Source: Ostrea edulis (lineage: Eukaryota). From it: DNA of 64,000 bases. This document shows, one piece after another, positions 5,400 to 58,409 of this stretch. Position 1 is the stretch's first letter, and every line of letters starts with the position of its first letter. Below the pieces are notes generated by a model that saw only the letters and a program-made list of their open reading frames with translations, was not told the origin of the DNA and ran no database searches. Both the position numbers and the translations under genes were made by a program. The stretch spans positions 4,712,001 to 4,776,000 of the forward strand of contig NC_079171.1 of the NCBI RefSeq assembly GCF_947568905.1, written 5' to 3'.

Positions 5400-5457
5400 G
5401 CGTATGACTGACTAGCGGTTTTTTTTTTTTTTTTTTGGTTTTTTTTGTTTGGTAGAC

Positions 5458-40570: not shown

Positions 40571-42020
40571 TATATACAGTGTGATTTCAGTTTTCAAAAG
40601 AAATTTCACTGCTTACTGATATATATATATATATCACATTGTAAAGGTGAAAGAGGTAAAGAATGCAGGAAAGCTTAAATCATGTTTATTTCTAAATTTT
40701 AAACCAATTGATTTGGATTGAACACTACTGCTTGAAGCAATTCATTGAATTTTGAACAGGGACTCAATGTCAACATTTGCTCCTTTGAATGTTCTGTTTT
40801 ATATTTTCTTGTTGGGATTGTATCATGCTGCAAATGTTTAATTTGGTTCAGCATGAACAATTCCCTTTTGTTTATGTTATTTGGATGTTACATTTGTTGT
40901 GTTTTTAATTTGAAATTTCAGCATCAGCATTCAAGTATTTCATAAGTTACTGCTTTGTGAACATTCCCAGTGGAGGGTAAGTCCGATAATTTCTTTTTGA
41001 TAATATTTATATTTTGATTAATGTCAACAGTAAATGTAAATATTAATAATGGGAGCAGAATTCTTTAAATCTACTTCTGTGGTATCAGACATTTCAAGAC
41101 TTCTATCAATCCAAATAATGAAATGTAATGTGAACTTTATTGGTCCGAGGAAATATCAACCAGATAAATCCTCTGGACTGATAAATTTTAAGACTGTTCG
41201 AGTAAGGAGTTACCTTAACATGCAACATTTTAAACTGGAATTGATTTGTGGTCAGTTATCGTGGTGATTGACATGTACAATACATGTCGGTTTGATGTAA
41301 ACCAAATTTAATTCTAAGACCAAAATAAGATATGTGTGTTTCCTATTTCACTCCCAAAAATATTAGGTAAGGTTGGTAGTTAAAATATTTTATTTTTATA
41401 ACCCACTTAACAAAGTTGCGGCGGGTATAATGTTTTTGACCTGTCCGTCAGTCTCTTTATTGTTAGCACAACTCCTTTGAGACCACTCAACAGAAGTTCA
41501 TGAAACTTTGTAGTTATAAGGACACACTATATAGATGTGCATATTCCCACGAAATTTTGATTTAATAATTTTTCTTGGAGTTATATGCCCCCTTTGAACT
41601 TAGAATTTCGAGCCCGTCTGTCCTGTTCTTGCAGTAGTGCATAGCATTGCCATTCATTGTGTGAGGCATTGTTAAGCAATGTTGGAGTGTGGGGTATGTG
41701 AGCTTGCTCACTTTTGCTTTCTTTCATATCAAAACATTTCATTTGAAATCTTAGTTTTTGATATGCTTTCAATACAAGTCTTTATGCATTAGAAATACTT
41801 TCCACACATTTTGAAGACCAATCGTAGTTAAAATGTCAAACAAAGAAATTCGAATGCAAAAGGGAAAAAAAAAGGTGTGAAAATTTTTGTGAAGATTTTG
41901 TATTTTATTTAAATCTGTACCGTCAATAACATATTTAGTGTTAGTATCGAAAAGGTAGGTAGGCTTGGTAAACCAGAAACATGTATATTTTATTTAAGAG
42001 ATTTTTATTTGAAATAGTTT

Positions 42021-42063
<43 letters not shown>

Positions 42064-43154
42064 AAAAAAAAATTATCTGAATAATTGTGGGTGGGAATGG
42101 GGGTGAATTAACCATGTTAAAAAAATTTCATTTGTATTAAATTTTTCAGGCACAGACAAGAATGAATCATTTAGGCCTGGTTTTATCAACAGTTTGGAGA
42201 ATGCGGTTGCAGGATAGTGCACAAGAAAAAACCTTGAAGCTTCTAACTGAAAACCTTAAAACACAGCCTTTGGTCAAAATTACAGGTAGGAAGTAGTCCT
42301 GAGATAGAATGGTGCTATAAATTTAGCTTTATATGACCCTAATATTGAGTATACATGTATATATAATTACAGTTCTAACATTGTTGGGCTAATATTCAGA
42401 TGTATCTATTATATATATAGATGTACAATGTAGTTTCTTGTCCAAATTAAGCACGAAATATATGCGATATGTTAATGGAGTCGCATAAAGTTACATTTTG
42501 TTACTATGTTCAGATGCCCTCAAGTATTGAATTATCTGATCATTATCTACACACGGTATGTAGCCAATGCTAGTGTAGTGCCAATTAAGAATGGAATGGA
42601 AATGACAGGAAAGTTGAAGTCATCATGTTTGTCTTCAATTTTGTCCCATTTCTTATTTCAAGAAATAATCCAAGTATGAAAGGGATTTTGGCATATGTTT
42701 TGTTGATATTTTCTTTCAATGTCAATGATATGCCAGCACACTTCTTTTTAATTTTACAGGTGACAACCTTGACATTTATGTAAAAACATCGAACTTGGGT
42801 ATCGACAGAAGAAACAAAGATCTCCACCTTTTTACATCAAATGTTCTGTTCAGTAGAGTGGCAACCATTGATATGAACAATGACCCTCCAAAAACTGATC
42901 TATGCAAGGTATCAGCAGAAAACATGTTCTTGCACAACAATGATTTGCAAAGACAAAGACTTATATATGCCTATAGTGTACTGTTAGGAAGAATCTTGTG
43001 CACACTTCCTGTATTTCAAACATTCAAAAAGGCAATACCAGAGCATATTCCTCACGAGTTTATGACAAAAATGTCAGAAAGGTCCATAGTTTTACCATTG
43101 CCGATTCAGTTCAAGAATGAAGCCAAACATGAAAACTGTCTCTCTATTATGGAC

Positions 43155-43944
43155 AGTAAGGAGATCGTGTTGATGGATCGATTACATCTGGATTTGTTTG
43201 AGCAAGAGAAATGTCTCCCTAATGGCGTGGATGTCCGTCTCAGATTCAATCGCGCTCGACCCCAGTTCTACATGATGACCGCTGCCAGGAGTAGTGGGAA
43301 AGTGGTCATTCAAAGTATGATCTTGTGGGTGAGGAAAGTCAAACCTGTGCCGAGTATCATTAATCTCATCAATCAGCAACTGAGTACTCAAACGGCGAAA
43401 TATCCATTGAGACGAGTGGAAGTGAAAACCTTCACCATTCCTAGTGGCACCCAATCTAAAATCACCGATCATCTGTTTCAAGGACAGATGCCTAAACTGA
43501 TCGTGTTGGGCTTTGTGGACAATGCGGCTTTTAATGGGGATAATACCAGAAACCCCTTTCATTTCCAAAATGAGAAAGTCAAGAAATTAGAAATCAGTAT
43601 CAATGGAGAAATGATGGAAACCCGACCTTTGGAACCTAATTTCACCGACGATCAATACCTGAGATCGTATTTGAGTCTGTACAAAGGCTTGGGAAAATTA
43701 GGCCAGGACTGGGCTCCGGACATTACCCTGGAAGAGTATAAAAACGGTTACACCCTCTGGTGTGTGGATTTCACGAAAGATCAAGAAGCCCAGACGGATA
43801 AATTTCATCTCATACAGACTGGGAACTTGAGTGGAAGTGCAATTTGCCGCCAACGTGGCCAGGACCTTAAACTGTGTGGTGTATGCCGTGTTCGACAATC
43901 TGCTAGAAATCAACAAACAACGAGAAGTCAGTATCGATTACTAA
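43155..43944 (+). pseudogene. Maverick major capsid protein (double jelly-roll), N-terminally truncated and frameshifted near 43830
   Basis: [43 protein letters not shown]; the shifted frame ends [17 protein letters not shown]. Confidence 0.88.
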
Positions 43945-43953
43945 GAGAGAGAG

Positions 43954-44451
43954 ATGGATACTCAGCAATTGAGAGATGTTTTACAACGAGATTTAGGACC
44001 GGCGTTTGCAGGTGTGTATCCTCGAGATGTCATACCTGAGCTGTTACCTCATCACAAAGCCATCGTGGTGAATACAGACCCTCACGATCGCCCTGGAGCG
44101 CATTGGGTCTGTTTGTATTTGAGTAGCCCTACCGTCGAATATTTTGATTCTTACGGATTACCTCCCAGCCATAAAGACATCCAACACTTTATTCAACGCC
44201 ACGGAGAGACTTGGATTCATAACACCCATTGTTATCAAGATTTGAATACGGATGTCTGTGGACAATACTGTGTGTATTTTTTACATCAACGCCATCGACA
44301 TAGAAGCACCGTACAAGAATGGTTACTTCCCTGGAAAGGCACGGCCTTACAACGCGATCGTTTTGTGGCTGATTGGTTTAAAGAGACCTTCCGAAAACCG
44401 AGAACCCATCAAGGACAAACTTGTCAATGTCAAAGACTGAATGTATTGTAA
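43954..44451 (+). CDS. Adenain-like (C5) cysteine maturation protease
   Basis: IVVNTD....[12 protein letters not shown] and YQ....VCGQYC (His/Asp/Gln/Cys catalytic set). Confidence 0.92.
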
Positions 44452-44554
44452 ACTATGTTATTGTATTGTTATTGTTCACAGTTGGAGTTTAATAAAACGT
44501 TGGAAAAAATCTTGTGGTTTTTTTTTTTTTTTCTTGTCATTGTAATCAACCATG

Positions 44555-44596
44555 TCTTTTCAAAAAGAATGGGTAGCCCTGAAAAGGGCTGTTTTT
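44555..44596 (-). terminator. Histone-type 3' stem-loop (44575-44590) plus downstream purine-rich element
   Basis: Minus strand AAAAAC-AGCCCT-TTTC-AGGGCT-ACCCA then TTTGAAAAGA. Confidence 0.8.
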
Positions 44597-44660
44597 TCTC
44601 TCTCTCTCTCTCTGTTCTTGGTCTTTTCTCTTCTTCTTCTTCTCTCTTCTCCGTCCCCCC

Positions 44661-44957
44661 TCACTGTGTGTTCTTCTTCCTCTTTCTTCTCTTCTTTTTC
44701 TGCTCCTCCGGGGGTTGCTGGTGATCAAACACAAAAACAGGCAACCACCCGTGTTTAAAAAACACTCTCCCCGGAGGCCGCTGCACCACTTCCAACTCTG
44801 CGTCCCAGTTTTCCTCTGGCGGGGGCAGATCCTGGCTCATGGGCGGTGGGGGAAGAGCCTCCCGTGAGGCCGGCGGGGCAATCTCTCGCTCCCAATCCTC
44901 CTCCCATTTGAAACAATAATCATTCACTGTAGGGTCTGGTCCTACTCTGCGGCTCAT
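44661..44957 (-). CDS. Small acidic/Pro-rich protein with a basic C-terminal NLS-like tail
   Basis: ATG start, conserved promoter block upstream (45030-45054) and histone-type stem-loop downstream; function unknown. Confidence 0.55.
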   Translation of the reverse strand: MSRRVGPDPTVNDYCFKWEEDWEREIAPPASREALPPPPMSQDLPPPEENWDAELEVVQRPPGRVFFKHGWLPVFVFDHQQPPEEQKKKRRKRKKNTQ

Positions 44958-45144
44958 ATCTACTTCTCTGGTTCCTTAAAAAATCGGAATGCCAGATTTT
45001 TGACGTTGCGCTCGTTTAAAAAGGTGAGAGCGCGGACGTCCTTGAAAACATCCCCTACCTCAGTCAAAGATGGCGGACGTCATGTTGATGACTCATCAAA
45101 AAAACACTATATAAATAGGTCACTTGTTACCATTTTTCTCAATC

Positions 45145-45546
45145 ATGTCGTTTGAACGGTACGCGAATGATGAGAAAGATGTACTAGTGTGTGGGTATTG
45201 CCGAGGACATTGGAGAACTTGTGGCTGTTTTCATTATAAAAAAGAAAACATCCTGGCCAAACACAAGTGGATAGAGAGTTTGGCAGAGCTGAATTATTAT
45301 CCCTTTGTCTATAAATGTTGTAGTCACACTAGAGAACCCTGGCTAAAGTGTAAGTGTCCGCAGCATTGTACCATCACCCCTGAAGAAGAAATAGCGCATA
45401 AGGACTGTACCTGTGAGATCTGTCAGGAGTTTAGAGAGCGCTGGACTCGGAGAAAGTTTTATCCCCACCTGTTTCAACATTGTCCTTACAGTCAAGAACC
45501 CTGGTCAACGTGTACCTGTGAGACCTGTCAACCAGCATGTCGGTGA
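45145..45546 (+). CDS. Cys/His-rich small protein (putative zinc-binding)
   Basis: ATG at 45145 below the TATA box (about 45109); repeated CxC/CxxC clusters; stop overlaps the macrodomain start. Confidence 0.55.
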   Translation: MSFERYANDEKDVLVCGYCRGHWRTCGCFHYKKENILAKHKWIESLAELNYYPFVYKCCSHTREPWLKCKCPQHCTITPEEEIAHKDCTCEICQEFRERWTRRKFYPHLFQHCPYSQEPWSTCTCETCQPACR

Positions 45547-46034
45547 CGGATCTACGAGGAGATGTATTATCTCTACCTTGGGTGGATGCTATTGTACAAC
45601 AATGTAACTGTTTAACAGTGAAACCTCATGGATTAAGTCAACGTATTGCCGACCGATTTCCTTGGGCTAATCTGTATGCGACCCGACAACCTTTAGGACG
45701 GAGAAATTTAGCTATAGAAGCGGATCGAGGAATACCGGGTACTGTGTGTATTATGCCTCATTCTACTCATCCTGATGTGATCTGTTTGTTAGCGCAATGG
45801 GATTACGGGAGAGGCACTCAACGGTTACCCCTGTATGCCGATACCCCCGAACAACGTGAACTTTGGTTTCAACAATGTTTACAGAAATTAGACACTTTGT
45901 CTTACCAGACTTTAGCGTTTCCTTATCGTATTGGATGTGGATTAGCCGGAGGCAATTGGACTCATTATAGACAATGGATTTGTGACTTTGCTTATCAGTA
46001 TCATAAACATGTTTACATTGTCAAGAAAATGTAA
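45537..46034 (+). CDS. Macrodomain protein (TARG1/DarG/phage-like branch)
   Basis: GDVL, AIVQQCNC, GLSQRIADRFP and LAFPYRIGCGLAGGNW. Confidence 0.85.
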   Translation: MSVTDLRGDVLSLPWVDAIVQQCNCLTVKPHGLSQRIADRFPWANLYATRQPLGRRNLAIEADRGIPGTVCIMPHSTHPDVICLLAQWDYGRGTQRLPLYADTPEQRELWFQQCLQKLDTLSYQTLAFPYRIGCGLAGGNWTHYRQWICDFAYQYHKHVYIVKKM

Positions 46035-46063
46035 CTTTATTATAGCTTTATTCTAGCTATTAC

Positions 46064-46103
<40 letters not shown>

Positions 46104-46199
46104 TTATTCTGCCTACTATGTGACTTGTGTTAATAAAACTTTTAAAAAAAAAACAAAAAAAAAAACTTGTGTGTTTCTTGATTTTTGCAATAAAAAGTG

Positions 46200-46240
46200 T
46201 CTTTTCAAAAAAGTTGGTGGCCCTGAAAAGGGCCGTTTGG
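46200..46240 (-). terminator. Histone-type 3' stem-loop (46219-46234) plus downstream purine-rich element
   Basis: Minus strand CCAAAC-GGCCCT-TTTC-AGGGCC-ACCAA then TTTGAAAAGA, about 21 nt after the RING ORF stop. Confidence 0.9.
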
Positions 46241-46255
46241 TCCTAAGACCGACTT

Positions 46256-47050
46256 TCAATGCCTGGTTCCGGTAAACCGGCATAACGGGCACCGTCCCCG
46301 GGTGTGTCGCCGCTCCTCTAACTGTTCCACGCACGAGCAGCAAGCTGGGCGCTGCCCACATCCCCTACACGTGATACCGGAGTGTACCCTGTCTTGCCAG
46401 CAGACAGGGCACTTAAACCAGATAGGAACCGCCCTATCTGCCCAGCCAGGGACAGTCATAGGGTGGTTCCTCGGGGGATGACTTGCCACCGGTGCGTGGG
46501 TTGGTCTCGGTGGCGGAGTCCTCCCTGCAAACCGGATGGTAGGTGGTGGGGGTCTTGCAGGGGCTGCTGGTCTCGGTGGTGATGGTGATGACGTGTCTGA
46601 CACCAACAGCGACGGACTCTGGGCTGGGCTGGGAGGTGGTGCGGGGGACGGTGACCTCGGTGAGTACTCCACCGGTGACGCTGGTGAGTCGCTCATCGGC
46701 ACCGGGCTGTATTCCACTGGTGCCGATGGGATCGCTGGTGGTGGTGTTGTAGGCGTCGCCGGGGAGTAAGGTGGTGGTGGTGAGGGTGGCTGTGGGGCCC
46801 GTCGGCGCGGTCTCGTAGCCGTGGACATCCGAGCGGTGCGGCGGCGTCCCCTCCCTTCATACTCTGCCCGCACCCGGCAGATGATCTCACGGGCCCCACT
46901 CTGGTCGAAAGGGGAGAAGGTGCTCAGGTCGTTCTCAGAACGCACGACCCAATTCTCCCCTACCCGTTCCTCAGCCACCACTAAGAGCCGGTACCGAAAG
47001 CCAGGCAGGGTCTGAAAGTTGTAAATAGGCTCTCTTCTTCCTTCAGCCAT
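46256..47050 (-). CDS. Pro/Ser-rich protein with a C-terminal C4C4 RING-like finger (putative E3 ligase)
   Basis: CPVC-x10-CRGC-x5-CCSC-x13-CPLC; homolog at 55115-55786. Confidence 0.75.
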   Translation of the reverse strand: MAEGRREPIYNFQTLPGFRYRLLVVAEERVGENWVVRSENDLSTFSPFDQSGAREIICRVRAEYEGRGRRRTARMSTATRPRRRAPQPPSPPPPYSPATPTTPPPAIPSAPVEYSPVPMSDSPASPVEYSPRSPSPAPPPSPAQSPSLLVSDTSSPSPPRPAAPARPPPPTIRFAGRTPPPRPTHAPVASHPPRNHPMTVPGWADRAVPIWFKCPVCWQDRVHSGITCRGCGQRPACCSCVEQLEERRHTRGRCPLCRFTGTRH

Positions 47051-47602
47051 TCTTCTTTCTTCTATCTTCTTTAAAATAATGAAAAGCTGTGCTGGATCAC
47101 CAGTGAAGCGAACTGGCGAGCGCGCCGGTATATATCAGGAAAGCGCGGACCTCCTCGAAAACATCCCTCGCTTCGGAGACGAAGCCAAGATGGTGGCCGT
47201 CAAAATGGCGGATTTGTGCTTTCGAGTAGAGAGTTTTTTCTCATTGTCTTTTTCTAGACATTCGATATCTGTGCATGGTAGATTTAATCTGATAGATTCT
47301 GGGGCGCGGAATTCGTTAAACTTATTTTTATTTTGCTACGTCGCATAGTTTTCAAAGAAACAGAGGTTAAAGAGGTCGAGTCGAGGTTCAATGTTTCTTC
47401 ACCACCTCTTTAAAAATTTATTTCTCGACCATGTACATCCCTAAAAACATCTCATAAGGTCTATTCGATAGAAAACACCTTATTTGATTCGATTTTCACT
47501 CTACCTTTAGGATTTTCTGGATTCCTCAACAAATAAACCCTTCTCTGAGAGAGTCAACCAAACACAGCTTTCGTGTAAACAATTTTATTCATGTCACATA
47601 TT

Positions 47603-47959
47603 TCAAATACATAACTCCCACACACAACACCAATTCACATGTATTTTTAAAATAGGGTCCAACATTTTTTCCATTTCTCGAATCCTGCGTTGAAATCGAT
47701 ATCGATCAGCGGCTACAGTCATCCAGATACTTGTCCGGTCTTCTTCGGGTAACAGATACACTTCATTATGATCCAGATTAAAAGTTACACATTTTCTTGT
47801 ATTTTGTTGTACATGTGATGAAGATACCGCCCTCGAAGGGTGTCGATCACGCCACTGATGTGCGGCTTTGTTCTCTTTAATTCCTCGGCTACTAAATGAA
47901 TCAACACTAATGCCTCGGTGTTGATACGGTTCTCGATCAAATGTCTGCATATCCACCAA
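47603..47959 (-). CDS. PPP1R15/GADD34/ICP34.5-like PP1-eIF2alpha adaptor
   Basis: RVxF-type KCVTF followed by RTSIWMTVAADRYRFQRRI...LDPIL. Confidence 0.85.
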   Translation of the reverse strand: MVDMQTFDREPYQHRGISVDSFSSRGIKENKAAHQWRDRHPSRAVSSSHVQQNTRKCVTFNLDHNEVYLLPEEDRTSIWMTVAADRYRFQRRIREMEKMLDPILKIHVNWCCVWELCI

Positions 47960-48123
47960 TATTCGTCTAAAGTTATTGGAAATAATACCGCACGAAGATA
48001 GGATTTCAATTTTTGAAAATCTGGCAAGTTTTCTATTTCCTCAATACACTGTAGGACAAATGTTTTTTCGATGTTATCCCTAGCAGTCATGATTTCATAA
48101 ATGAAATGAATTAAGTTCTTCAC
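47785..48123 (-). CDS. Bcl-2-like helical paralog 4
   Basis: Shares the FP.TLDEY..I...L.EN....LVLI....EELKR..P pattern with its neighbours. Confidence 0.55.
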   Translation of the reverse strand: MKNLIHFIYEIMTARDNIEKTFVLQCIEEIENLPDFQKLKSYLRAVLFPITLDEYWWICRHLIENRINTEALVLIHLVAEELKRTKPHISGVIDTLRGRYLHHMYNKIQENV

Positions 48124-48487
48124 ACTTTATGTATACTTCTCGAAGCCAGTCCTTGGTGATACTTTCAATCTCGGCGGTTTTTTCAGGCATGCGTTTCTTG
48201 AATTCCTCCCCCACAACATAAATTAACATCAATCCCGCATCGTTATAGAGATTGATGTACACCCGGTTCCGTAGATCTGTATATTGGTCCAGAGTCAATG
48301 GAAACACTCCCCCTATCAGAAAATTTTTAGCGAATTGAAACACCGTATCGTCTTGCATTTTCTCGACCCATTCTAATGCATGGTTATGCGCTTTTTCTGC
48401 GATGTTGTCACTTTCAGCCATGGTTTGTAAATGACTAAAATGAATACAAGTATCCGCTTTTTCTACGATGTGGTCACTGCTGGCCAT
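48095..48487 (-). CDS. Bcl-2-like helical paralog 3 (likely ATG about 48421)
   Basis: FPLTLDQY...GLMLIYVVGEEFKKRMPEKTAEIESITKDWL. Confidence 0.55.
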   Translation of the reverse strand: MASSDHIVEKADTCIHFSHLQTMAESDNIAEKAHNHALEWVEKMQDDTVFQFAKNFLIGGVFPLTLDQYTDLRNRVYINLYNDAGLMLIYVVGEEFKKRMPEKTAEIESITKDWLREVYIKCEELNSFHL

Positions 48488-48969
48488 CCTCCAGGAATAA
48501 AGGAAAAGAAAAACGGTGAGGTTTTTTTATACACCTTTTCCAGCCAGTGATCGGTAATCGCTACAATCGCCCCAGTCTTCTCAGGTTCCCTTCGTCTAAA
48601 TTCTTGCTCCATGGTATAAATCATGATCAATCCAGACTCTCTGTTCAGGTTGTCGGCTATATGCTTGCAAACGCCGGAATATTCATATAAGGTCATAGGA
48701 AATTCCCAAAAGATCAACAACTTCATGGCGAATTTATATCTCAACGGCTGTTTTTCTTTCCAGTCCTTGATACACTGTAATGCAGCGCTACGAGCGTTGT
48801 TCACCGATTCTTTGTAGTCCTTGAAATACTGTAATACAGCGGTAAGAACATTGTTGTCCCATTCAGCCATGATGATCAAATGAAAAAAAATTCCAAAACG
48901 TTCTTGTTTTATAACAGGGCAGCCATTCCTTTCATACGAATCAGTTCCACGAATCCTTTTTGTAAACAA
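48463..48969 (-). CDS. Bcl-2-like helical paralog 2 (likely ATG about 48870)
   Basis: FPMTLYEY...GLIMIYTMEQEFRRREPEKTGAIVAITDHWL. Confidence 0.55.
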   Translation of the reverse strand: MFTKRIRGTDSYERNGCPVIKQERFGIFFHLIIMAEWDNNVLTAVLQYFKDYKESVNNARSAALQCIKDWKEKQPLRYKFAMKLLIFWEFPMTLYEYSGVCKHIADNLNRESGLIMIYTMEQEFRRREPEKTGAIVAITDHWLEKVYKKTSPFFFSFIPGGWPAVTTS

Positions 48970-49268
48970 TCGCGTAAGATCCGATCAATGTCACTCATCT
49001 GGTCTGGAAGGTTCTGTTTCAATTCCTCAGCATACAAATAAATCATGAGTAAACGTCCCGTATTGGTATTCTCCGCTAATGAATCAGCAATCCGTTGAAA
49101 ACTATGTACATTTCTGACCTCCGGTGACATCTGTTGTACAAATTGACGAGCATTTTGAATGAGAGGGTCATGTAAGGCCACGTTCATACATTGTAGTACA
49201 TAGCTATATCCATTCATTCTCGTAGTAGCACTGCCGCCCATAGTGAATAACGAACGTTCAGAAAACAC
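48909..49268 (-). CDS. Bcl-2-like helical paralog 1 with the clearest BH1-like motif
   Basis: FQRIADSLAENTNTGRLLMIYLY resembles BH1 (F..V..ELF.DG.NWGRIV.FF). Confidence 0.6.
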   Translation of the reverse strand: MFSERSLFTMGGSATTRMNGYSYVLQCMNVALHDPLIQNARQFVQQMSPEVRNVHSFQRIADSLAENTNTGRLLMIYLYAEELKQNLPDQMSDIDRILRDCLQKGFVELIRMKGMAALL

Positions 49269-49378
49269 CTGTATTTATAGGTAAAGGTTATGCATCACGT
49301 GATCAAGCACCTGCACCGCGTGATCAAGCACCTGTACGTCAGCTGGTTTCTACAGTCATTCTTGTCTGACCTTCAGTC

Positions 49379-49639
49379 ATGGATACACGGAGAGTTTTAA
49401 GAGCGAGACGCCGCCGCCAGGGAATACAACAAGTGGAGAATTTAACCATAGTAGAAGATTATGTAGACGAGATGGAGATCTGGGACAATTTAGTACAGAG
49501 ATGTCGCCATCGATTACGCTGGGGCCGATCTAAAAATTGGTGTTTTGACTATGTATTGCGGTCACATGAAACAGTGGAGGATATTTGGCTGCGTTTAAGT
49601 GACATGTACCTGAAAAATTCCCCCTCATACAGTACATGA
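49379..49639 (+). CDS. Hypothetical small protein
   Basis: ATG start; coupled to the next ORF by an ATGA overlap. Confidence 0.5.
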   Translation: MDTRRVLRARRRRQGIQQVENLTIVEDYVDEMEIWDNLVQRCRHRLRWGRSKNWCFDYVLRSHETVEDIWLRLSDMYLKNSPSYST

Positions 49640-49884
49640 TTTACCAGTTTTACACGTTATTGAACGGCACTCAAAAAGTATCGGGATTTATTCGACTGGA
49701 GAAACCACGTCACCGGAGAAGTGTATGGGTATTGTTTTGGGATGCAGACTGGATGTGGGAAACCGTCGAAGAGATACGTTTCCCCGGGAGAAGAGCTCGA
49801 CAATTAGTACAGCACATTATATCCGAAGATCATGACTTACACGTGTATATAGAAGAACCTGCGTATGAAGCCGGCCATTTTTAA
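49636..49884 (+). CDS. Hypothetical small protein
   Basis: ATGA overlap; followed by AATAAA and a degenerate histone-like stem-loop (49904-49919). Confidence 0.5.
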   Translation: MIYQFYTLLNGTQKVSGFIRLEKPRHRRSVWVLFWDADWMWETVEEIRFPGRRARQLVQHIISEDHDLHVYIEEPAYEAGHF

Positions 49885-50193
49885 AAATAAAAACTTCATG
49901 CACAGCCCTTTTTAGGCCTACTTTAAACACCAATATAAGTTCCATTCCACTAAAGTCAATGTGTACCAATGTGCACTAGCACGCGCTGGTCGCGAGAAAC
50001 CGGCTTTTCAAGTTCAATTAGTGCACTAGCACGCGCTGGTCGCGCGATGTTCTAAATGAAACCGGTTTTTCCAGAAAAAGATGGTGCAACCACGTGCTCC
50101 CCACGAGACAGAATAGTCTAGACATTTTGCTGGCTATAAAAGCGGAGCCCCAGTGTCAGTCCTCATTCGATCTTCAATCACCTTCCAGAAGAC

Positions 50194-51093
50194 ATGGCTC
50201 AGAAACAAGTAGAATTTGTGGACAAAGCTCAGAAGAAAATAGATCAGCTGGTACAGAAGCAGATGGGACCACAGAAAGACTACATTGAACTGAAGAAAGC
50301 TAAGAGTGACGATCAGAAGACTGAACTGGGGAAGACCTCGAACTTCTTGCTCAAGTCTCCAGACTACATTGCTCGACAAGAGAAGATGCCCCAGACCTCG
50401 AACCAGACCACGAGCTTCAATCTCACGCCTTCAGACTACATTGCTCGACAAGAGAAGATGGCCCAGACCTCGGATTACCTCCCTAGCCAGAATCCGACAG
50501 ACCCGGGATTAGGCTTCTATTTTCCCGATTCACAGGACGCTACGGGACTGGAACTGGGCCTCTACAACGCTCAGAATGACCCTCCGACCATGAACAAAGA
50601 AGACTTTGCGATCATTACCACGACACTAGACGGGATCGTTAACCGCATTAATGTGCTGAGTAATGAGATTGGAAATCATACCACAGTCCTACTGAAGAAG
50701 CTGGAAGAGCTGACTTCTAAAAAACCTAGGAAGGAATACACTCCAGATTACGCTGCTAACCCGTGCTACACGTGTGGAGAAACAGGACATTGGTCGCCGG
50801 ATTGCCCACAGAAAACAGATTATCCGCAGACCAGTAAGAAATCGAGGTCAGCAGATTCTCAACAGACCAGCAAGAAAACCAAACAAAAGGATCCTTGCTA
50901 CAAATGCGGAAAAATAGGACACTGGATTAGTGAGTGTCCAGAAGAACAACTGGAGATAGATGCGATGATTGGGCCCGTACCTGGCTCAAAACCCCCTGTG
51001 AAGAGAGAATACAAACCGTTAGAGATGTGGAATCCGCCCGCACCTACTGAAGAACCGCCAAAAAAGAAGAAGAAGAAACTCAGCAGAAAGTAA
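50194..51093 (+). CDS. Coiled-coil protein with two CCHC zinc knuckles and a C-terminal poly-Lys NLS
   Basis: CYTCGETGHWSPDC and CYKCGKIGHWISEC; duplicated DYIARQEKM; TATAAAA at about 50135 and AATAAA at about 51184. Confidence 0.75.
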   Translation: MAQKQVEFVDKAQKKIDQLVQKQMGPQKDYIELKKAKSDDQKTELGKTSNFLLKSPDYIARQEKMPQTSNQTTSFNLTPSDYIARQEKMAQTSDYLPSQNPTDPGLGFYFPDSQDATGLELGLYNAQNDPPTMNKEDFAIITTTLDGIVNRINVLSNEIGNHTTVLLKKLEELTSKKPRKEYTPDYAANPCYTCGETGHWSPDCPQKTDYPQTSKKSRSADSQQTSKKTKQKDPCYKCGKIGHWISECPEEQLEIDAMIGPVPGSKPPVKREYKPLEMWNPPAPTEEPPKKKKKKLSRK

Positions 51094-51419
51094 TGGACTG
51101 TGCTTGAACTGTTATGCTTATTGAACTGTTTTTATGCTTATTGAACTGTTTTGCATTGTTCTATGCTTGTACCATTGTTCTTTAATAAACATGTCAACTT
51201 AAAACCTTGTGTTATTCTTTAGATTTAATACACAGGAATACATAGAAATACACAGGATTTCATACCGATTTTCAGAAAATAGCTCCAGGAACTCACCCTT
51301 TTCCAGGAACTCAAAGCGAAAGTAGCGCATAATAGAGCTAAAATTACACCAGCGGCAATAGCCCAGCCTATTAACCCGACCTACAACCCCTGCTGGGGTC
51401 CGCAAGTTGACCCCGTCCT

Positions 51420-51541
51420 AGATATTGAACCACTCATCGACCCCCGACACCGCTTGACCAATCAAAAGCCGCCCTTGCTTGACCTCATTTGCATAAAAAG
51501 TGCACTCAGTTGAACTCCCTATCGGGAGGGCTTATACTACT
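51420..51541 (-). promoter_or_regulatory. Maverick terminal repeat / putative replication origin
   Basis: AGTAGT terminus; hairpin ctccc-tatc-gggag; octamer ATTTGCAT at 51487-51494; CCAAT at about 51459. Confidence 0.65.
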
Positions 51542-52271
51542 CCCGTTTCTTTTTATCTTACAATTTACATGACTAAAGCGTTAAACTTATTGTATGTGCT
51601 TCTGAAACAAAAGTATTAAAGTTCAGTGTGTTCATGCTCCCTGGTCCCTCTACATACAATGCACATGCAAGATGTACACTAAATGTAGTATTATCTGCCT
51701 AAAGCAGGGGTGTCATTGGATGCCATCCAACTCTTTGTTGCCAGGATTAGAACATTTTCTTTATCTAAGGTACAGATGTACATGATACTGAATAATGAAG
51801 TGTACATGTCAATACCATTGTACCTATATATAACAATTGCCAAGAAGAAAATAAAATTATTGATTTATATTTTATAACGACAATGAGGATACATGAGCAG
51901 ATCCAGCACAATAGCTTTATTAAGAATTATTTAGGGAGAGGGCTAAAATAGACTGTTTGCTGCCTGATCCCATTCACTGATTTCTGAATAAAATATTGTT
52001 TAAATAAAAATAATAAGCTACATAACCAAATAAAGAGATTATGCTGGACCTGATAAGGGAATAATTATAGTACACACAATGATACAGAATGTGTTGTGAA
52101 AGTCATCACAGGGTGTGATGTCATTTTAGTGCATACAATCAGATGAAAAACCGCACACCGTCACTTTGAACAAAGGCAAGCTTCTGAATTAATGATAAAG
52201 GATGTGTTTGAGAAATGAACTAGTTGGTTGGGTGGTTTTATTCTAATTTGGTCCAAACATCTTCTACTTAC

Positions 52272-52765
52272 CATTTCTCTATAATATGGCATTCATCAAC
52301 AACAACGGCTACCACTCTTGAGGAAAATTGCTCATCCGACAGTAGTTCGTGTCCCGTTTTTGTATTAAAGAGGGCCTCTGGATGACACATAACAATTGAA
52401 AAGTCCCCTTTCTTCACTCTTTCCACATCGACGTCACACTCTGCTACTAAATCTTCATCTGTAGTGTCTTCCACCTTGGACGCAATATCAAGTCTACAGG
52501 CACTGATTCCATGAATTTTCAATATATGAATTTGATCCTTTTGAATAATATTCAATGGTGAAATTGTCAAACAAACGGGAGTCTCCTTGCCTTCACCAAG
52601 AACTTGTGGAAGTAGGTGATATATTAGGCTTTTGCCGTAACCGACAGGCAAACTTACCAACAGATCGCCTTTCTTGTCGCGTAAATACTCGAAAGCTTGT
52701 CTCTGACAGTCTCTCAACACGATGTTCTTGTCGTAATCTTTCACGATTGAATCTAATGTTGACAT
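52272..52765 (-). pseudogene. RecQ-type SF2 helicase first exon (AcademH-like); downstream exons missing
   Basis: LRDCQ, LPVGYGKSL (motif I), ISPL, HPEAL and VVVDECH (DExH); GT donor at 52271. Confidence 0.85.
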
Positions 52766-53215
52766 TTTGTCGGATGAATAAATAAACCAAATAACACAGA
52801 CTAGGAAAATGTTTCGCAAACATATAGTTCCTATAAATATAGCGTTTTAAAAATGTTTGTCGCCTAAAATAAAACCATATTTATGTCAGAAATAAAAATA
52901 TATTACAAAAGTATTAATATAAAATCTTCGATGCAAAATCTAGGCTATATTGACATATTACAGAAATCTTGTAAAACCTGAGACGTTTACAGAGATTGTG
53001 AGCACTGTAAGGATCGACAACTCTGTATGAGAGATTGAGATCGTTAGCCAAAGACACAAATCCAGGGCGACTAATCATGATTTATCTGTATGCCGAGGAG
53101 CTCAAGAAAATCATCCCCAATCAAACCCGCGACATTGCGATCATTCTACAAGAAAGTTTACAAGAGGGGTTCATGGAGATGATGCGTTTTAACTAGTTTT
53201 CTTCATTAACAAATC

Positions 53216-53542
53216 ATGGGTGAAAGTGAAAACATCTCAGAAAAAGCGCATAAGCATGCATTAAAATGCATCGAGAAAATGCAAGACGATGGGGTGTTTC
53301 AAGCTGTTAAAAATTATCTGATATCGGGAGTGTTTCCAATTACCCTAGACGAATATATAGATCTACGGAACCATGGGTACAAGGACCTCTATAACGATGC
53401 AGGATTGATGTTAATTCAAATCGTGGGGGAGGAATTCAAGAAACGCATTCCAGAAAAAACCACCGAGATTGAAAGTATCACAAGCGACTGGCTTCGAGAA
53501 GTGTACATAAAGTGTAAAGAACTTAAATCATTTCATTTATGA
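53216..53542 (+). CDS. Bcl-2-like paralog 3, copy 2
   Basis: Strong similarity to 48095..48487. Confidence 0.6.
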   Translation: MGESENISEKAHKHALKCIEKMQDDGVFQAVKNYLISGVFPITLDEYIDLRNHGYKDLYNDAGLMLIQIVGEEFKKRIPEKTTEIESITSDWLREVYIKCKELKSFHL

Positions 53543-53853
53543 AATCATGGCTGAGAGGGACAACACAGAAAAAAATATTCGTCGGCAAGTGTATTGAGGA
53601 GGTTGAAAACTTACCAGGATTTCAATTTGTGAAATCCTATCTTCGTTCGGAAATATTTCCAATCACTTTAGACGAATATTCATGGATATGCAACCATCTA
53701 ATCGAGAACCCTATCGGCACCTCGGCCTTGGTTTTGATTCATTTAATAGCCGAGGAATTAAAGAGAACGATGCCAGACCAAACACCCCAGATCGAGACCC
53801 TCCGAGCGCAGTATCTTCACGACATGTACATCAAAATACGAGAAAATGCGTAA
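53539..53853 (+). CDS. Bcl-2-like paralog 4, copy 2
   Basis: Strong similarity to 47785..48123; ATGA overlap with the previous ORF. Confidence 0.6.
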   Translation: MKSWLRGTTQKKIFVGKCIEEVENLPGFQFVKSYLRSEIFPITLDEYSWICNHLIENPIGTSALVLIHLIAEELKRTMPDQTPQIETLRAQYLHDMYIKIRENA

Positions 53854-54014
53854 CCTTTAATCTGGACAACAATGAAGTGTATCTGTTACCCGAAGAAGAT
53901 CGAAAAAGTATCTGGATGACTGTAGCCGCCGATCAATATCGATTCCAAAGAAGAATTCAGAGTGTGGAGAACATTTTAAAACCTATCTTAGAAAAACTTT
54001 TTATTTCTTTATAA
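53682..54014 (+). CDS. PPP1R15/ICP34.5-like adaptor, copy 2
   Basis: RKCVTF and RKSIWMTVAADQYRFQRRI. Confidence 0.82.
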   Translation: MDMQPSNREPYRHLGLGFDSFNSRGIKENDARPNTPDRDPPSAVSSRHVHQNTRKCVTFNLDNNEVYLLPEEDRKSIWMTVAADQYRFQRRIQSVENILKPILEKLFISL

Positions 54015-55114
54015 GTGACATGAATAAAACATTGTTGTATGTGGCGTGAATAAAAATGTTTAAAATACATGGATTGTGTTTGTCGACTCTCTCAGAGGAA
54101 GGGTTTATTTTATTACTCAGGAGAAAAATCCTAAAAGTGGATTGACAATCAGTTAGAATAAGACGTTTTCTACTGTATTACAGGTTATTTTACTGTATTA
54201 CAGGTTATTGGACATTTTTATAGTTGTGCATGTCCGAGAAATAAATACTTTAAAGGGACTGGTTCACGAAAGAAATGTTTTTCGATTTTGATGTTAAAAA
54301 TTAAAAATATACTTCATTTAATATTGACAACCAAAATTTGGACCGTCTGAATGCAAGGATAAGAGCAATATTTTAGCTTTGATTCTCTGTTAGGTAAACA
54401 AAGACTCGAGTCTTTTTATGTAAACAAACAGATCAGTGAAACGTTAATTTTGTAATTCAAAGTATGTTCATTTTGTACAATCACAAATTTTAACTTTTAA
54501 ATGACACATTTTACCTTAAGTATACTTGAGATGTGGTATATTCAATATCCATTTATTTTGAAAACCCCGTAAACAATAACACACCCCAATCTTTGTTTTC
54601 AAAACAAATAATAAACTCTCTATAATGAGCTTATGTCATGAGGAATAACCTTAATTTTTTTGTGAATCCTTCTAAACATATTAGACTGTAGATTTTGATC
54701 ATTTAAAGTGAAAAAGAAAATTTGAAGAAAAATCGTGAATCAGTCCCTTTAAGTGTCTGTGTTAGTGGATTTCACCTCGACTCGTGCTCTTTGATCTCTC
54801 TTTCATTGAAGACTATGCCCCGTAGCAAAATAAAACTAAGCTTAACGAATTCAGCGTCTCAGAATCTATCAAATAAAACCCTCAATTCAGAGAAATCGAA
54901 TGTGTAGAAAAAGAAAATGCGAAAAAACTCTCTTCACGAAAGCACAAATTAGCCATATTGACGGCAGCCATCTTGGCTTCGTCTCCGAAGCGAGGGATGT
55001 TTTCGAGGTCTGCGCTCTCTCGTTATATACCGACGCTCTCGCCAGTTCGCTTCACTGGTGATCCAGGAACTACAAGATTTATTTTGAGAAGATTCGAAGA
55101 ATTGAAGAACAACA

Positions 55115-55786
55115 ATGTCGACAACCAGTATGGTCTTTGCCACCTTACCGGGGATCAGATACCGGTTGCAGCTCGTTACCGAGCGGAACAATTGGTGGGG
55201 ACTGGGTAATCATGAGCACCCGGGAATTGGGGCAGTTTAGTCCTCTTGATAGGGCGGGGGCTATGGAGCTCGTCAATCAAGTGCGGCGCCGTTACGAGCG
55301 CCCTGGACGGGGTGCATCCGCTGTAGGACAGCGCGCATGTCCACCACCCCCAGTCAACAGACAGTCCATCGCAGCCCGGACCCTCGGAACAGCCCTCGCC
55401 ATCGATACTAGAGGGGTACTCGCCCTCACCGATGTCCCCGCAGCCGCCCACTAGCCCGAGAGCGAGTCTGGAAGAAGTGGTACCCCAAACACCCACACCC
55501 CCGTCAACCCCTGTGAGACCCCGGGCACAACGTCGCGGTGCCGTTCGTATCCTTCCACTACACCGGCATCAGCAGGACCACCGACAGAACACGAGACCGT
55601 CGTCCCGGGGTGGGCAGATCGATTACCATCGATCTGGTTCACCTGCCCCATCTGTCTGCAAGACTCCAAACACTCGCAGTTAAGAGTGCAGCCACTGTAA
55701 ACAACGGGCAGTGTTCTGCGAGTGTGGTCCAGCTGGAGGGAGGAAGATACAGCCGGTGCCCCCTCTGCAGATTCATCGGCGTGTAG
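55115..55786 (+). pseudogene. Pro-rich RING protein, copy 2, frameshifted
   Basis: TLPGIRYRL, FSPLDRAGA, WFTCPIC and RCPLCRF fall in different frames. Confidence 0.78.
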
Positions 55787-55809
55787 AAAGGCACAGCTAC
55801 AGAGCAAAA

Positions 55810-55850
55810 CCCCACGACCCTTTTAAGGGCCACCCACATCTTTGAAAAGA
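55810..55850 (+). terminator. Histone-type stem-loop (55816-55831, one mismatch) plus downstream element
   Basis: GACCCT-TTTA-AGGGCC-ACCCA then TTTGAAAAGA. Confidence 0.78.
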
Positions 55851-56184
55851 TGGTGTTTATCACAATGATTGAGAAACGTACACAAATTAACACCAGTAGC
55901 ACTTTATTTACTACCAAACACATGATTATGTTTTAATGACAATATACACTTGTTTATCATACCTACAAACAAAATCATGAATAAATTGTCTGTAATGACT
56001 CAAATTTCCTCCCGCTAAGCCACACAAATATATAAAATCTTAATTTAAAAACACAAAAACAAGGAATTATGATCAATACAATGAAATAAACACTCACGTT
56101 TTGTATAACAGACGGTATATACGATTTGGTAGACATTGTGGACGAGTCTGAAAGAATTTACGATAATAATATTTGTAAGTCTCC

Positions 56185-57700
56185 AGGAAGAGGTGTTTGC
56201 TGTAAGGGAATTCAGAAAAGGGGACTTTCTCCTTGAGTACAAGGGAAAGCTGTGCCGTAGTGACCCTGGCTACGGCACATACATGTTCCGAGTTCCAACT
56301 GAATGGGAAAGATTATTGGTATGTTTTGATTGTTACATTATGCTCAAGAGCCATAAAGACCGTCATGAGGAACAAAGACCAACTGGTATGCATATTTTTG
56401 TTTGGTATTTGCATAAACCGTAGCGAGGATTTTCTTTCATATGATTAATATCATATTGTTTTTGGCATTAGATGATAGAAGACAACCCAGCAGAAGAACG
56501 GGGTCCCCTTATCGAGGAGATAGATGAGGAGATAGATGAGGAGATAGACGAGGAGGAAGAGAATGTAATATGCATTTATTGATAGTTTCCCCCCAGTTCT
56601 GTGCATGTTACATTTCATCAGGGATGATTTTATACACAGTTCTGTGCATGTTACATTTCATCAGGGATGATTTTATACACAGTTCTGTGCATGTTACATT
56701 TCATCAGGGATGATTTTATACACAGTTCTGTGCATGTTACATTTCATCAGGGATGATTTTATACACAGTTCTGTGCATGTTACATTTCATCAGGGATGAT
56801 TTTATACACAGTTATGTGCATGTTACATTTCATCAGGGATGATTTTATACACAGTTATGTGCATGTTACATTTCATCAGGGATGATTTTATACACAGTTA
56901 TGTGCATGTTACATTTCATCAGGGATGATTTTATACACAGTTATGTGCATGTTACATTTCATCAGGGATGATTTTATACACAGTTATGTGTATGTTACAT
57001 TTCATCAGGGATGATTTTATACACAGTTATGTGCATGTTACATTTCATCAGGGATGATTTTATACACAGTTATGTGCATGTTACATTTCATCAGGGATGA
57101 TTTTATACACAGTTATGTGCATGTTACATTTCATCAGGGATGATTTTATACACAGTTATGTGCATGTTACATTTCATCAGGGATGATTTTATACACAGTT
57201 ATGTGCATGTTACATTTCATCAGGGATGATTTTATACACAGTTTTATTACATTTTCCAGCCGTCAATTTCAACATGCCAAACACCAAGCCATGGAAGACG
57301 GACGTTTACCGAGGGAGAGGGTGGCGTCATCGAAGCATTCTGCCAGTAAGGAATTTAGCATACATGTTGAAATAAAACTTGTCTTCAATGAATATGTCTA
57401 GTGTGCTGAGATTAACGCAACATCAATTTTTGTAGACGACTGCAGTCATAACACATCACAAGGTGGTGGACCGACTGTCCAGGACGGAGGAGGGGAGGGC
57501 CATAATCCACCGTTTGGAAGTGGCAGATCCAAGCGATTGGAGGAAGAGGCTAGCAGATCGGGTGAGGACTGCAAGGAGAAGGAGAAAGTAAGTGATAATG
57601 AAAATATTTGAAAATAATTGATTGATTTATTGCATTTAAAACAAATTTGTTATTTACTTTTCAGGTGAAGACCCGACTGCTAGTGGCTCTGTGGAGTGTT
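56185..57700 (+). pseudogene. Spliced gene remnant beginning with a SET-domain-like fragment
   Basis: VFAVREFRKGDFLLEYKG resembles the SET N-terminus; short acidic exons follow; no NHS motif found. Confidence 0.35.
56594..57243 (+). repeat. 43-bp minisatellite, about 15 copies
   Basis: cagtt(c/a)tgtgcatgttacatttcatcagggatgattttataca; early copies have c and later copies have a. Confidence 0.98.
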
Positions 57701-58005
57701 TATCTGGATCGGAAATGGTCCGCTCCGTTTCTTTCTAATTTGATAGGGCTAGGGGGAGTGTTTATCGGGGGCGGAAATGGTCCGCTCCGGGTTTTTTTTT
57801 TATTGTGATAGGGCGAGGAAGGAGTGTTTATCGGGGGCGGTAATGGTCCGCTCCGGGTTTTTTTTTTATTGTGATAGGGCGAGGAGGAGTGTGTATCGGG
57901 GGCGGTTGTTTATTGGGGGCGGAAATGGTCCGCTCCGTTGTGTTTTTTTTTAATTTGATAGGGCGAGGGGGAGTGTTTATCGGGGGCGGAAATGGTCCGC
58001 TCCGT
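57695..58005 (+). repeat. GC-rich about 60-bp repeat, about 5 copies
   Basis: ggagtgtttatcgggggcggaaatggtccgctccg reiterated with T-rich linkers. Confidence 0.85.
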
Positions 58006-58409
58006 TTTTTAAAAAAAATATTTTACATTCTTCAAATTTTGTACAGCTATTATGAAAGCATTGTAGATGTACATGTGTGTGATCAGACATTCTTTGAAAT
58101 ACTTGCCTGTGCATGATGTAGTTGAACTTCCATCACTTAAAATGTCATATTCCAGTAAATAATATAGTTAAATACATTGAGCAAATCTGATTTACTTTGT
58201 GATGTTTTATTTGAAACTGACAATATAAATACTCAATACAGAAGTCGATAGCATTAGAAATTTATCTTCAATGATTCATGATAATCTAGTTCTGTTTACT
58301 ATATCATTGAAAAATTACCTTTTACTTCTCTACTGGGTATATGTCAACAAGGCCATTATAACTTTGAGAAAATCTACATGATGAGAGAAAGAGAAGTAAA
58401 ACAATACAG

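Follow-up and report, generated by a model that had tools for sequence, protein, structure and literature searches.

Pre-mRNAs of replication-dependent histones are cut a few bases past a 3′ stem-loop in a step that depends on SLBP and on U7, a small nuclear ribonucleoprotein (snRNP), as described in the available text of bioRxiv 10.64898/2026.10.14.759114, and replication-dependent histone mRNAs are apparently the only mRNAs processed by this route (PMC5054213, available text). Here, we describe a 64,000-nucleotide stretch of the Ostrea edulis genome (contig NC_079171.1, positions 4,712,001 to 4,776,000 of the forward strand; hereafter the window, whose own numbering is used throughout), in which non-histone genes of a Maverick/Polinton-type mobile element end in signals of this kind. 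Among metazoan replication-dependent histone genes, those of this host have the same 16-nt stem-loop, flanks, histone downstream element (HDE), spacing, element at approximately +40 and H2A/H2B promoter element as the Maverick sites; they differ in that the Maverick cargo is non-histone and its genes lie in a dispersed mobile element. The machinery is known, and what appears to be new is the presence of its signals on non-histone genes of a virus-like mobile element.

Other described systems resemble the locus in part. The adintoviruses and Mavericks presented in the available text of Starrett et al. 2021 (PMC8502044) are alike in their protein-primed DNA polymerase B (pPolB), capsid-like gene, adenain-like protease, Bcl-2-like and Cys-rich accessory genes and many integrated copies, and the string "polyadenyl" is absent from the main text of that paper as available. 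Human LTR12/HERV1 elements, whose transcription is repressed by U7 snRNA, are likewise mobile elements with an HDE-like, U7-complementary sequence; however, the abstract (PMC11417402) describes neither a stem-loop nor cleavage, whereas in the Maverick the stem-loop, spacing and HDE would constitute a complete processing signal past the stop codon. The SLBP-dependent, U7-independent polyadenylated maternal histone mRNAs of Drosophila (PMC11997800, available text) are a possible model for a fourth stem-loop of the window, which has no HDE and adjoins an AATAAA hexamer, but they are histone mRNAs and their stem-loop is truncated. Our literature search (supplements, subscription journals and Repbase reports lay outside it) yielded no report of histone-type mRNA ends in Mavericks, viruses or transposons; the words "non-histone" and "transpos" do not occur in the available text of bioRxiv 10.64898/2026.10.14.759114, and that of PMC13525598 holds no such report either.

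Stem-loops and downstream elements of the Maverick genes

The Rfam histone 3′ stem-loop model (RF00032, Histone3; cut-off 34 bits) matched all three sites that the original prediction had placed in the window, with E-values of 8e-9 to 1.4e-4 in a 22-kb scan, and one of them (site 2) lies above the cut-off. The 3′ signals are as follows:

44575..44590, minus strand: histone-type stem-loop 1 (Rfam 32.0 bits, match 44550-44595; 6/6 pairs, A-U basal pair; 70 nt past the stop codon)
44555..44564, minus strand: HDE of site 1, TTTGAAAAGA, with its G at +14 from the stem
46219..46234, minus strand: histone-type stem-loop 2 (Rfam 40.2 bits, match 46194-46239, above the cut-off; 21 nt past the stop codon)
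46200..46209, minus strand: HDE of site 2, TTTGAAAAGA, with its G at +13
46173..46179, minus strand: third shared element, (G/A)AGAAAC, of site 2, ~40 nt past the stem
55816..55850, plus strand: stem-loop 3 with its HDE at 55841-55850 (Rfam 28.8 bits, match 55811-55856; G at +13)
49904..49919, plus strand: fourth stem-loop, after a Rep/E1-like gene; no HDE (GAAAAGA absent), AATAAA immediately upstream

The sequence TTTGAAAAGA occurs three times in the window, every time behind one of stems 1-3. The ACC(C/A)A 3′ flanks, the identical HDE and the position of its G 13-14 nt past the stem, all of which had been predicted, were recovered (G at 14, 13 and 13), as was the compensatory basal-pair change of the 44.6-kb copy, seen as the A-U pair of stem-loop 1 and present in stem-loop 4 as well. 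The 4-nt U-rich loop and the A/C-rich flanks are likewise present. The 6-bp stem proposed for all three sites forms fully at sites 1 and 2, while stem-loop 3 has 5/6 pairs, with an A.C mispair at pair 2; similarly, the claim that each stem follows the stop of an intronless open reading frame (ORF) is accurate for sites 1 and 2, as far as introns can be read from DNA, but the ORF of site 3 is frameshifted. Judging by the paralogous genes upstream of both, sites 2 and 3 are not independent. Stem-loop 4 forms 5/6 pairs in this copy and is perfect in 17/19 other copies of the element, near-perfect in one and absent in one.

How closely do these signals follow those of the host histone genes? Stem-loop 2 is identical to the host H2B stem-loop over all 16 nt, and the stem-loops of host H2A, H3 and H4 (L235, L003 and L011) are variants with G-C at pair position 5 and, in H4, a UAUA loop. 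In the proposed comparison with the host HDE, GAAAAGA lies at +13 or +14 in all four host histone genes (H2A, H2B, H3 and H4) and at sites 1-3; it does not occur at site 4. The (G/A)AGAAAC element is found at +38 to +43 in host H2B, H3 and H4, at sites 2 and 3 and in the Maverick loci L001, L229 and L230, and site 1 has a variant of it; host H2A lacks it, as do L067, L227 and L228, three loci described below. The ten best Rfam loci that were fetched comprised three H2B genes and seven Maverick genes. Neither the 98-aa ORF upstream of site 1 nor the RING-like ORF upstream of site 2 has a Pfam match to a histone domain, and the two are, by their sequence, histone-gene-like in signals, yet not histone genes.

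Another important question is whether the signals are maintained by selection or are a neutral relic, that is, the shell of a captured histone gene that was copied in a recent burst and whose mRNAs are polyadenylated at downstream hexamers. The near identity of site 2 to the H2A/H2B context, the poly(A) signals downstream and the 90-95% identity of the copies would all fit such a relic. However, pairwise alignment of 19 copies with the window showed differences at only 2/874 positions of the two stems and both HDE cores (HDE 1, 0/133; HDE 2, 0/133; stem-loop 1, 1/304) versus 113/1235, 233/1957 and 45/304 (9-15%) in the adjacent non-coding DNA, a contrast whose size is exaggerated by the kinship of the copies and by homopolymer runs in the flanks, while its direction holds. 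The 98-aa ORF differs at 234/5643 positions over the same copies. The compensatory A-U basal pair at sites 1 and 4 also speaks against a relic, as does the turnover of the stem-HDE spacer, which varies between subfamilies among the 100 matches listed while the stem and GAAAAGA stay constant. One subfamily copy (L002:1500-1580) has lost the DNA that separates the HDE from the +40 element, which joins the two purine-rich words. Moreover, the signals were retained after an exchange of cargo: in 4/19 copies, a distant paralog (53% identity, over 74 aa only) takes the place of the RING-like gene, yet both the promoter element and the 3′ signal are kept; a stem-loop, although decayed, also persists in the distant Maverick L067. 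We regard a neutral relic as very improbable, the least probable of the alternatives considered here. Genome-wide, the combined stem-loop and HDE pattern gave 402 matches, histone genes included, versus 0 for the reversed pattern. By these sequence comparisons, the signals are real and under selection.

A shared promoter element and a candidate U7 snRNA

One additional piece of evidence comes from the 5′ side of the same genes, where a 19-bp element, ATGTTTTC(A/G)AGGA(C/G)GTCCG, precedes a TA-rich box:

45033..45051, minus strand: promoter element of the site-1 gene, in common with the intergenic promoter of host H2A/H2B; a TA-rich box follows downstream
47146..47164, minus strand: promoter element of the site-2 gene, differing from the host H2A/H2B promoter by 2 mismatches; TATA box 11 nt downstream

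The host H2A/H2B intergenic region carries the 19-mer, with 2 mismatches relative to the site-2 version, in both histone clusters that were read. In 19/19 arms, the element occurs exactly twice, upstream of the site-1 and site-2 genes, and it occurs once in L040, a copy of another subfamily. Its score against H2A/H2B was matched by 0-1 of 300 shuffles, values uncorrected for the fact that the element was picked by inspecting 12 promoters. The capsid, zinc-knuckle, site-3 and site-4 promoters gave no score for it, and 1.59 Mb of foreign control loci contained 0 matches within 3 mismatches. The 19-mer brings to mind the vertebrate H4 Site II/HINFP element, but this label was dropped, as the literature searched gave no confirmation and the oyster H4 promoter is without the 19-mer. 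The H2A/H2B promoter element strengthens the idea that these genes may be regulated in a histone-like manner.

If the HDEs are functional, the host should possess a U7 snRNA able to pair with them. According to the available text of PMC5054213, U7 is characterized by a UCUUU box, an RUUUNUCYNG Sm site and a 3′ hairpin. The Rfam U7 model (RF00066) gave 10 weak matches, and 0/65 scored candidates were above the cut-off; patterns built from the HDE and an Sm motif were no commoner than their reversed controls (12 vs 16 and 32 vs 37). Sixteen candidates were read out of 2, 12 and 32 pattern matches. One of them, L064 (G000:C10:11843090-11843320, minus strand, with the candidate RNA at ~11843170-11843217), shows all three of these features, its hairpin being short, and is predicted to pair through its 5′ end with 4/4 host HDEs over ~15 bases at -19.4 to -21.3 kcal/mol, exceeding what the pattern demanded (9 of the ~15 bases). 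The other 15 were rejected, with -6.4 to -14.1 kcal/mol against the host HDEs. The duplexes of L064 with sites 1, 2, 3 and 4 reach -16.3, -18.5, -11.6 and -7.6 kcal/mol, and the values of sites 1, 2 and 3 were attained by 6, 2 and 77 of 2987 random windows. We therefore treat L064 as a candidate oyster U7 snRNA.

Occurrence in other Mavericks and other mobile elements

These data raise the question of whether the trait is confined to the copies of one family, or is found in more distant Mavericks and in unrelated elements. Foreign sets of 80 metagenome loci and 80 IMG/VR loci with related proteases were assembled, of which three are close (46-66%); the IMG/VR loci, obtained with a protease alignment, have 27-41% identity, and many are labelled GVMAG. 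IMG/VR scans with the RING protein, the protease and a RING alignment found no relatives. One of the three close foreign loci, L067, is a distant Maverick (protease 66% and macrodomain ~50% identical) with the layout of the window element, that is, a protease, a macrodomain-like gene and a convergent Cys/basic ORF, and it has a stem-loop of 31.6 bits at the equivalent place. Hairpin-like words in L127, L130 and eight more loci are attributed to chance, having no upstream stop, lying apparently antisense to coding sequence and giving no Rfam match in the 2/10 scanned together with 6 other loci. The contigs compared came from four of ten listed runs (X1, X2, X4 and X10). Contigs of run X2, from another organism, connect the macrodomain-like gene to the 21 letters of stem-loop 2, and X4 covers site 4; these are hints only, and nothing about expression is concluded from the contigs of X1, X2 and X4, because their RNA nature is guessed and the terminal region is covered too; that they leave the RING ORF uncovered is given no weight.

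Within the oyster genome, 74 matches have a base other than C at the third flank position: 19 at H2B genes, 37 identical and 3 variant ones that are dispersed, groups of 4, 3 and 5, and 3 single ones. One member was read from each of the four non-histone groups, and the three that were scanned all exceed the Rfam cut-off (34.3, 35.3 and 38.9 bits). The members are as follows:

L227:1-421 (G000:C1:25824250-25824720): GDSL/SGNH-like ORF (E 0.0036) ending in a stem-loop and HDE; family of the 37+3 dispersed matches
L228 (G000:C1:2663800-2664200, minus strand): C-terminus of a Tc1/IS630-like DDE_3 transposase (E 7.7e-4), followed by a stem-loop and HDE; 3 matches with this spacer
L239 (G000:C1:67164270-67164430, minus strand): end of a second SGNH-like ORF (by inspection) with a stem-loop and HDE; 4 matches
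L238 (G000:C7:50080930-50081170, minus strand): end of a non-histone ORF of no known family with a stem-loop and HDE; 5 clustered matches on C7

Longer relatives of the SGNH ORF were sought, but there were none. The expectation that the trait belongs to Mavericks was thus borne out in part: it is present there and conserved across copies and subfamilies, but other mobile-element ORFs of the same genome also carry it, and, by these matches, it is not special to Mavericks within the oyster genome. We lean slightly towards a broader statement, in which oyster mobile elements (the Maverick and, independently, Tc1-like and SGNH-encoding ones) would have repeatedly connected non-histone genes to the entire histone regulon (promoter element, SLBP and U7 cleavage), making functional, non-polyadenylated mRNAs timed to S phase or the oocyte. 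On this view, U7 snRNP cleavage would have its first natural clients outside the histones, and viruses a gene-expression strategy that is new.

The Maverick arm, its genes and the proposed use of the signals

In 895 Mb of searched genome, 40 of 279 candidate places for the element were scored, and 35/40, among them the window itself, span almost the whole of 44400-47400 at 90-100% identity. Mavericks and Polintons end in terminal inverted repeats with (AGT)n and create a target-site duplication. The window holds one right arm and a second fragment:

43146..51541, plus strand: Maverick/Polinton-type element, right arm, truncated on the left side (96.9% identity over 8.5 kb to copy L021, homology from ~43146)
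51533..51541, plus strand: right terminus ending in ACTACT (same end and unrelated flanks in 17/19 copies)
53197..55909, plus strand: another Maverick fragment, of a related subfamily, inverted and more decayed (inverted repeats I1-I6, 74-89% identical to the first)
55115..55787, plus strand: frameshifted paralog of the RING-like gene, read by three-frame translation, with a damaged promoter element

The left-truncated copy of the window is without pPolB, but matches to protein-primed PolB (PF03175) occur at a distance of ~9-12 kb from related copies and share their orientation (for instance, C5:93838207 next to L021). Many of the pPolB frames near related copies are open over ~1330-1340 aa; therefore, recent activity of the element is indicated. 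By the nearby pPolB, the capsid-like gene and the adenain-like protease, the element is of the Maverick/Polinton type, as had been proposed. The genes of the arm are as follows:

43158..43950, plus strand: major capsid gene remnant, 5′ part missing and frame broken (467-aa ORF at the same place in L021)
43954..44451, plus strand: adenain-like cysteine protease (Pfam Peptidase_C5 E 2.4e-4, at the cut-off); AATAAA at +39; converges on the site-1 gene
44661..44957, minus strand: 98-aa ORF (site-1 gene), Pro-rich middle, Lys/Arg-rich tail, no known family
45145..45546, plus strand: Cys-rich ORF of 133 aa with no family assigned, divergent from the site-1 gene
45537..46034, plus strand: macrodomain-like 165-aa ORF (weak PDB matches: BT1257 E 0.012, macrodomain protein E 0.21); converges on the site-2 gene
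46256..47050, minus strand: RING-like 264-aa ORF (site-2 gene), Pro/Ser-rich middle, C-terminal Cys cluster (zf-RING_2 E 0.019, below the cut-off)
47603..47950, minus strand: PP1-binding (GADD34/ICP34.5-like) ORF (Pfam PP1c_bdg E 2e-7); AATAAA at +13
47785..49241, minus strand: cluster of small helical ORFs, one weakly Bcl-2-like (E 0.016, below the cut-off, 48909-49241 only)
49379..49884, plus strand: Rep/E1 origin-binding-fold protein gene (site-4 gene), in two frames here and in a single 167-168-aa frame in 16/19 copies
50194..51093, plus strand: zinc-knuckle ORF (zf-CCHC E 2e-15); AATAAA at +90

The capsid assignment comes solely from ESM Atlas features (nearest clusters scoring 0.98, with DJR-like_dom on 14-24% of members), as the ORF has no Pfam match. 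The 98-aa ORF is present in 18/19 copies, which are all those where the scan detected its stem-loop. The RING-like product has 9 homologs (34-91% identical), those at 83-91% being annotated in Ostrea edulis and P0004-P0009 lying at 34-47%, and of the 40/54 members of its protein cluster that were read, 39 are annotated as oyster proteins; a ubiquitin-ligase role may be supposed for it. For the site-4 protein, a single-sequence model was discarded (pLDDT 42.9), and a model of pLDDT 61.5 gave CRESS Rep endonuclease domains and the papillomavirus E1 DNA-binding domain as top Foldseek matches (best PDB E 9.9e-4; 132 viral matches at E <= 0.001); ESM Atlas matches were to CRESS Rep clusters (0.92). 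Catalytic histidines of Rep-type nickases are judged against the HUH motif. By inspection, the histidines of this motif appear to be missing, and origin binding is therefore a more likely role for the modelled protein than nicking. The PP1-binding ORF, which we take to be comparable to GADD34/ICP34.5, overlaps small helical ORFs that vary among copies, and it recurs with them in a host-modulation cassette at 47603-49241 and 53216-54014.

Such a gene content brings up the possibility that the abundant viral RNAs serve as decoys that titrate SLBP and U7, lowering host histone supply so that viral DNA escapes packaging, with the proteins being secondary. The high copy number and the other host-modulating genes of the arm would suit this role, but the ORFs are kept open, and the Tc1-like transposase and SGNH-type ORFs with the same ends are unlikely decoys; we consider this account quite improbable, if marginally less so than a neutral relic.

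Several other features lie in the window. A Tc1/mariner-like element (39062-40573) has a 335-aa transposase-like ORF flanked by perfect 30-bp inverted repeats, and a LINE-like element (1652-6684, minus strand) has endonuclease/RT-like ORFs and an upstream 408-aa ORF with a NADAR domain (E 3.5e-20). A RecQ/DEAD-type helicase fragment (52268-52765) separates the two Maverick pieces; a 43-bp tandem array (56465-57366, ~15 copies) and a short GC-rich repeat cluster (57685-58011) adjoin the second Maverick fragment, and a tRNA-like match (60107-60179, 38.7 bits) is possibly the head of a SINE.

The arrangement of the arm is also relevant to the purpose of the signals. Both genes with a stem-loop and HDE face a convergent polyadenylated gene over a 100-220-nt gap (the protease for site 1, the macrodomain-like gene for site 2), L067 has the same layout, and site 4, where the HDE is missing, also lacks a convergent neighbour. 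Processing may therefore be real and its purpose fast termination against convergent genes, with U7-type cleavage keeping down both read-through and the double-stranded RNA by which small-RNA silencing could be set off. This purpose, the main rival to timing in S phase or the oocyte and compatible with the explanation that we prefer, does not account for the H2A/H2B promoter element that both genes have upstream, and we hold it to be unlikely, although less so than a decoy or a relic. Regarding the prediction that neighbouring structural genes use AATAAA, a poly(A) signal is found at the protease, zinc-knuckle, macrodomain-like and GADD34-like ORFs but not behind the capsid ORF, and sites 1-3 have hexamers too; the contrast between the sites and their neighbours is softer than predicted.

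Taken as a whole, the best explanation, and in our judgement a likely one, is that the Maverick family runs its RING-like and 98-aa basic-tail genes as imitation histone genes; a pathway regarded as serving histone mRNAs alone is probably used by a virus-like element. The match to host histone signals, the conservation, the specificity for these genes and the predicted pairing to the U7 candidate are established at the sequence level, and that transcription, SLBP binding and cleavage take place at these signals appears quite likely. The H2A/H2B-type promoter element would drive the site-1 and site-2 genes, SLBP would bind the stem-loop and the host U7 snRNP would pair with the HDE, and a cut a few bases 3′ of the hairpin would release a non-polyadenylated mRNA; the downstream poly(A) signals may yield a second, polyadenylated form, and host H3 has such hexamers too. 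The signals were probably captured from a host H2A/H2B gene and then held by selection as the coding cargo changed, which would account for both their near identity and the exchange of cargo. Since the promoter and the 3′ end point to the same regulon, our best guess at the benefit, only narrowly favoured, is that the genes are expressed in S phase or in oocytes, the times at which the element is able to replicate or to reach the germline.

A number of observations weigh against this explanation. In human cells, crosslinking and immunoprecipitation of SLBP recovered essentially histone targets alone (available text of PMC4604434). Poly(A) hexamers lie on the same strand downstream of site 1 (+82), site 2 (+111, +167 and +178) and site 3 (+149); site 3 is decayed, with a mispaired stem and a frameshifted ORF; and the 19-mer is unmatched in the host H3 and H4 promoters. 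The U7 candidate was found with an HDE-derived pattern, is below Rfam detection and has a weak hairpin (-5.8 kcal/mol), and its upstream region shares an 8-nt word with 1/4 U1 loci at a different distance, with no clear common promoter. The strict stem-loop scan found none in 80/80 metagenome and none in 80/80 IMG/VR protease loci; among the three close foreign loci, a relaxed match was obtained in L067 only, where the site is decayed and the HDE reads GAAAAAA at +14, while L069 is deleted there and L070 ends 222 nt past the macrodomain-like gene. The inflated conservation contrast described above belongs here as well.

The comparison also brings to light a U7 candidate from a mollusc, together with two putative cis-elements in the histone genes of the oyster. 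If the explanation is true, it would break the rule, stated in reviews, that SLBP/U7 processing makes histone mRNAs only among animal mRNAs. It would also give integrating DNA viruses a way to couple their early regulators with S phase or with the germline. In poly(A)-selected RNA sequencing, mRNAs of this kind would hardly be seen, which may account for the poorly known expression of Mavericks.

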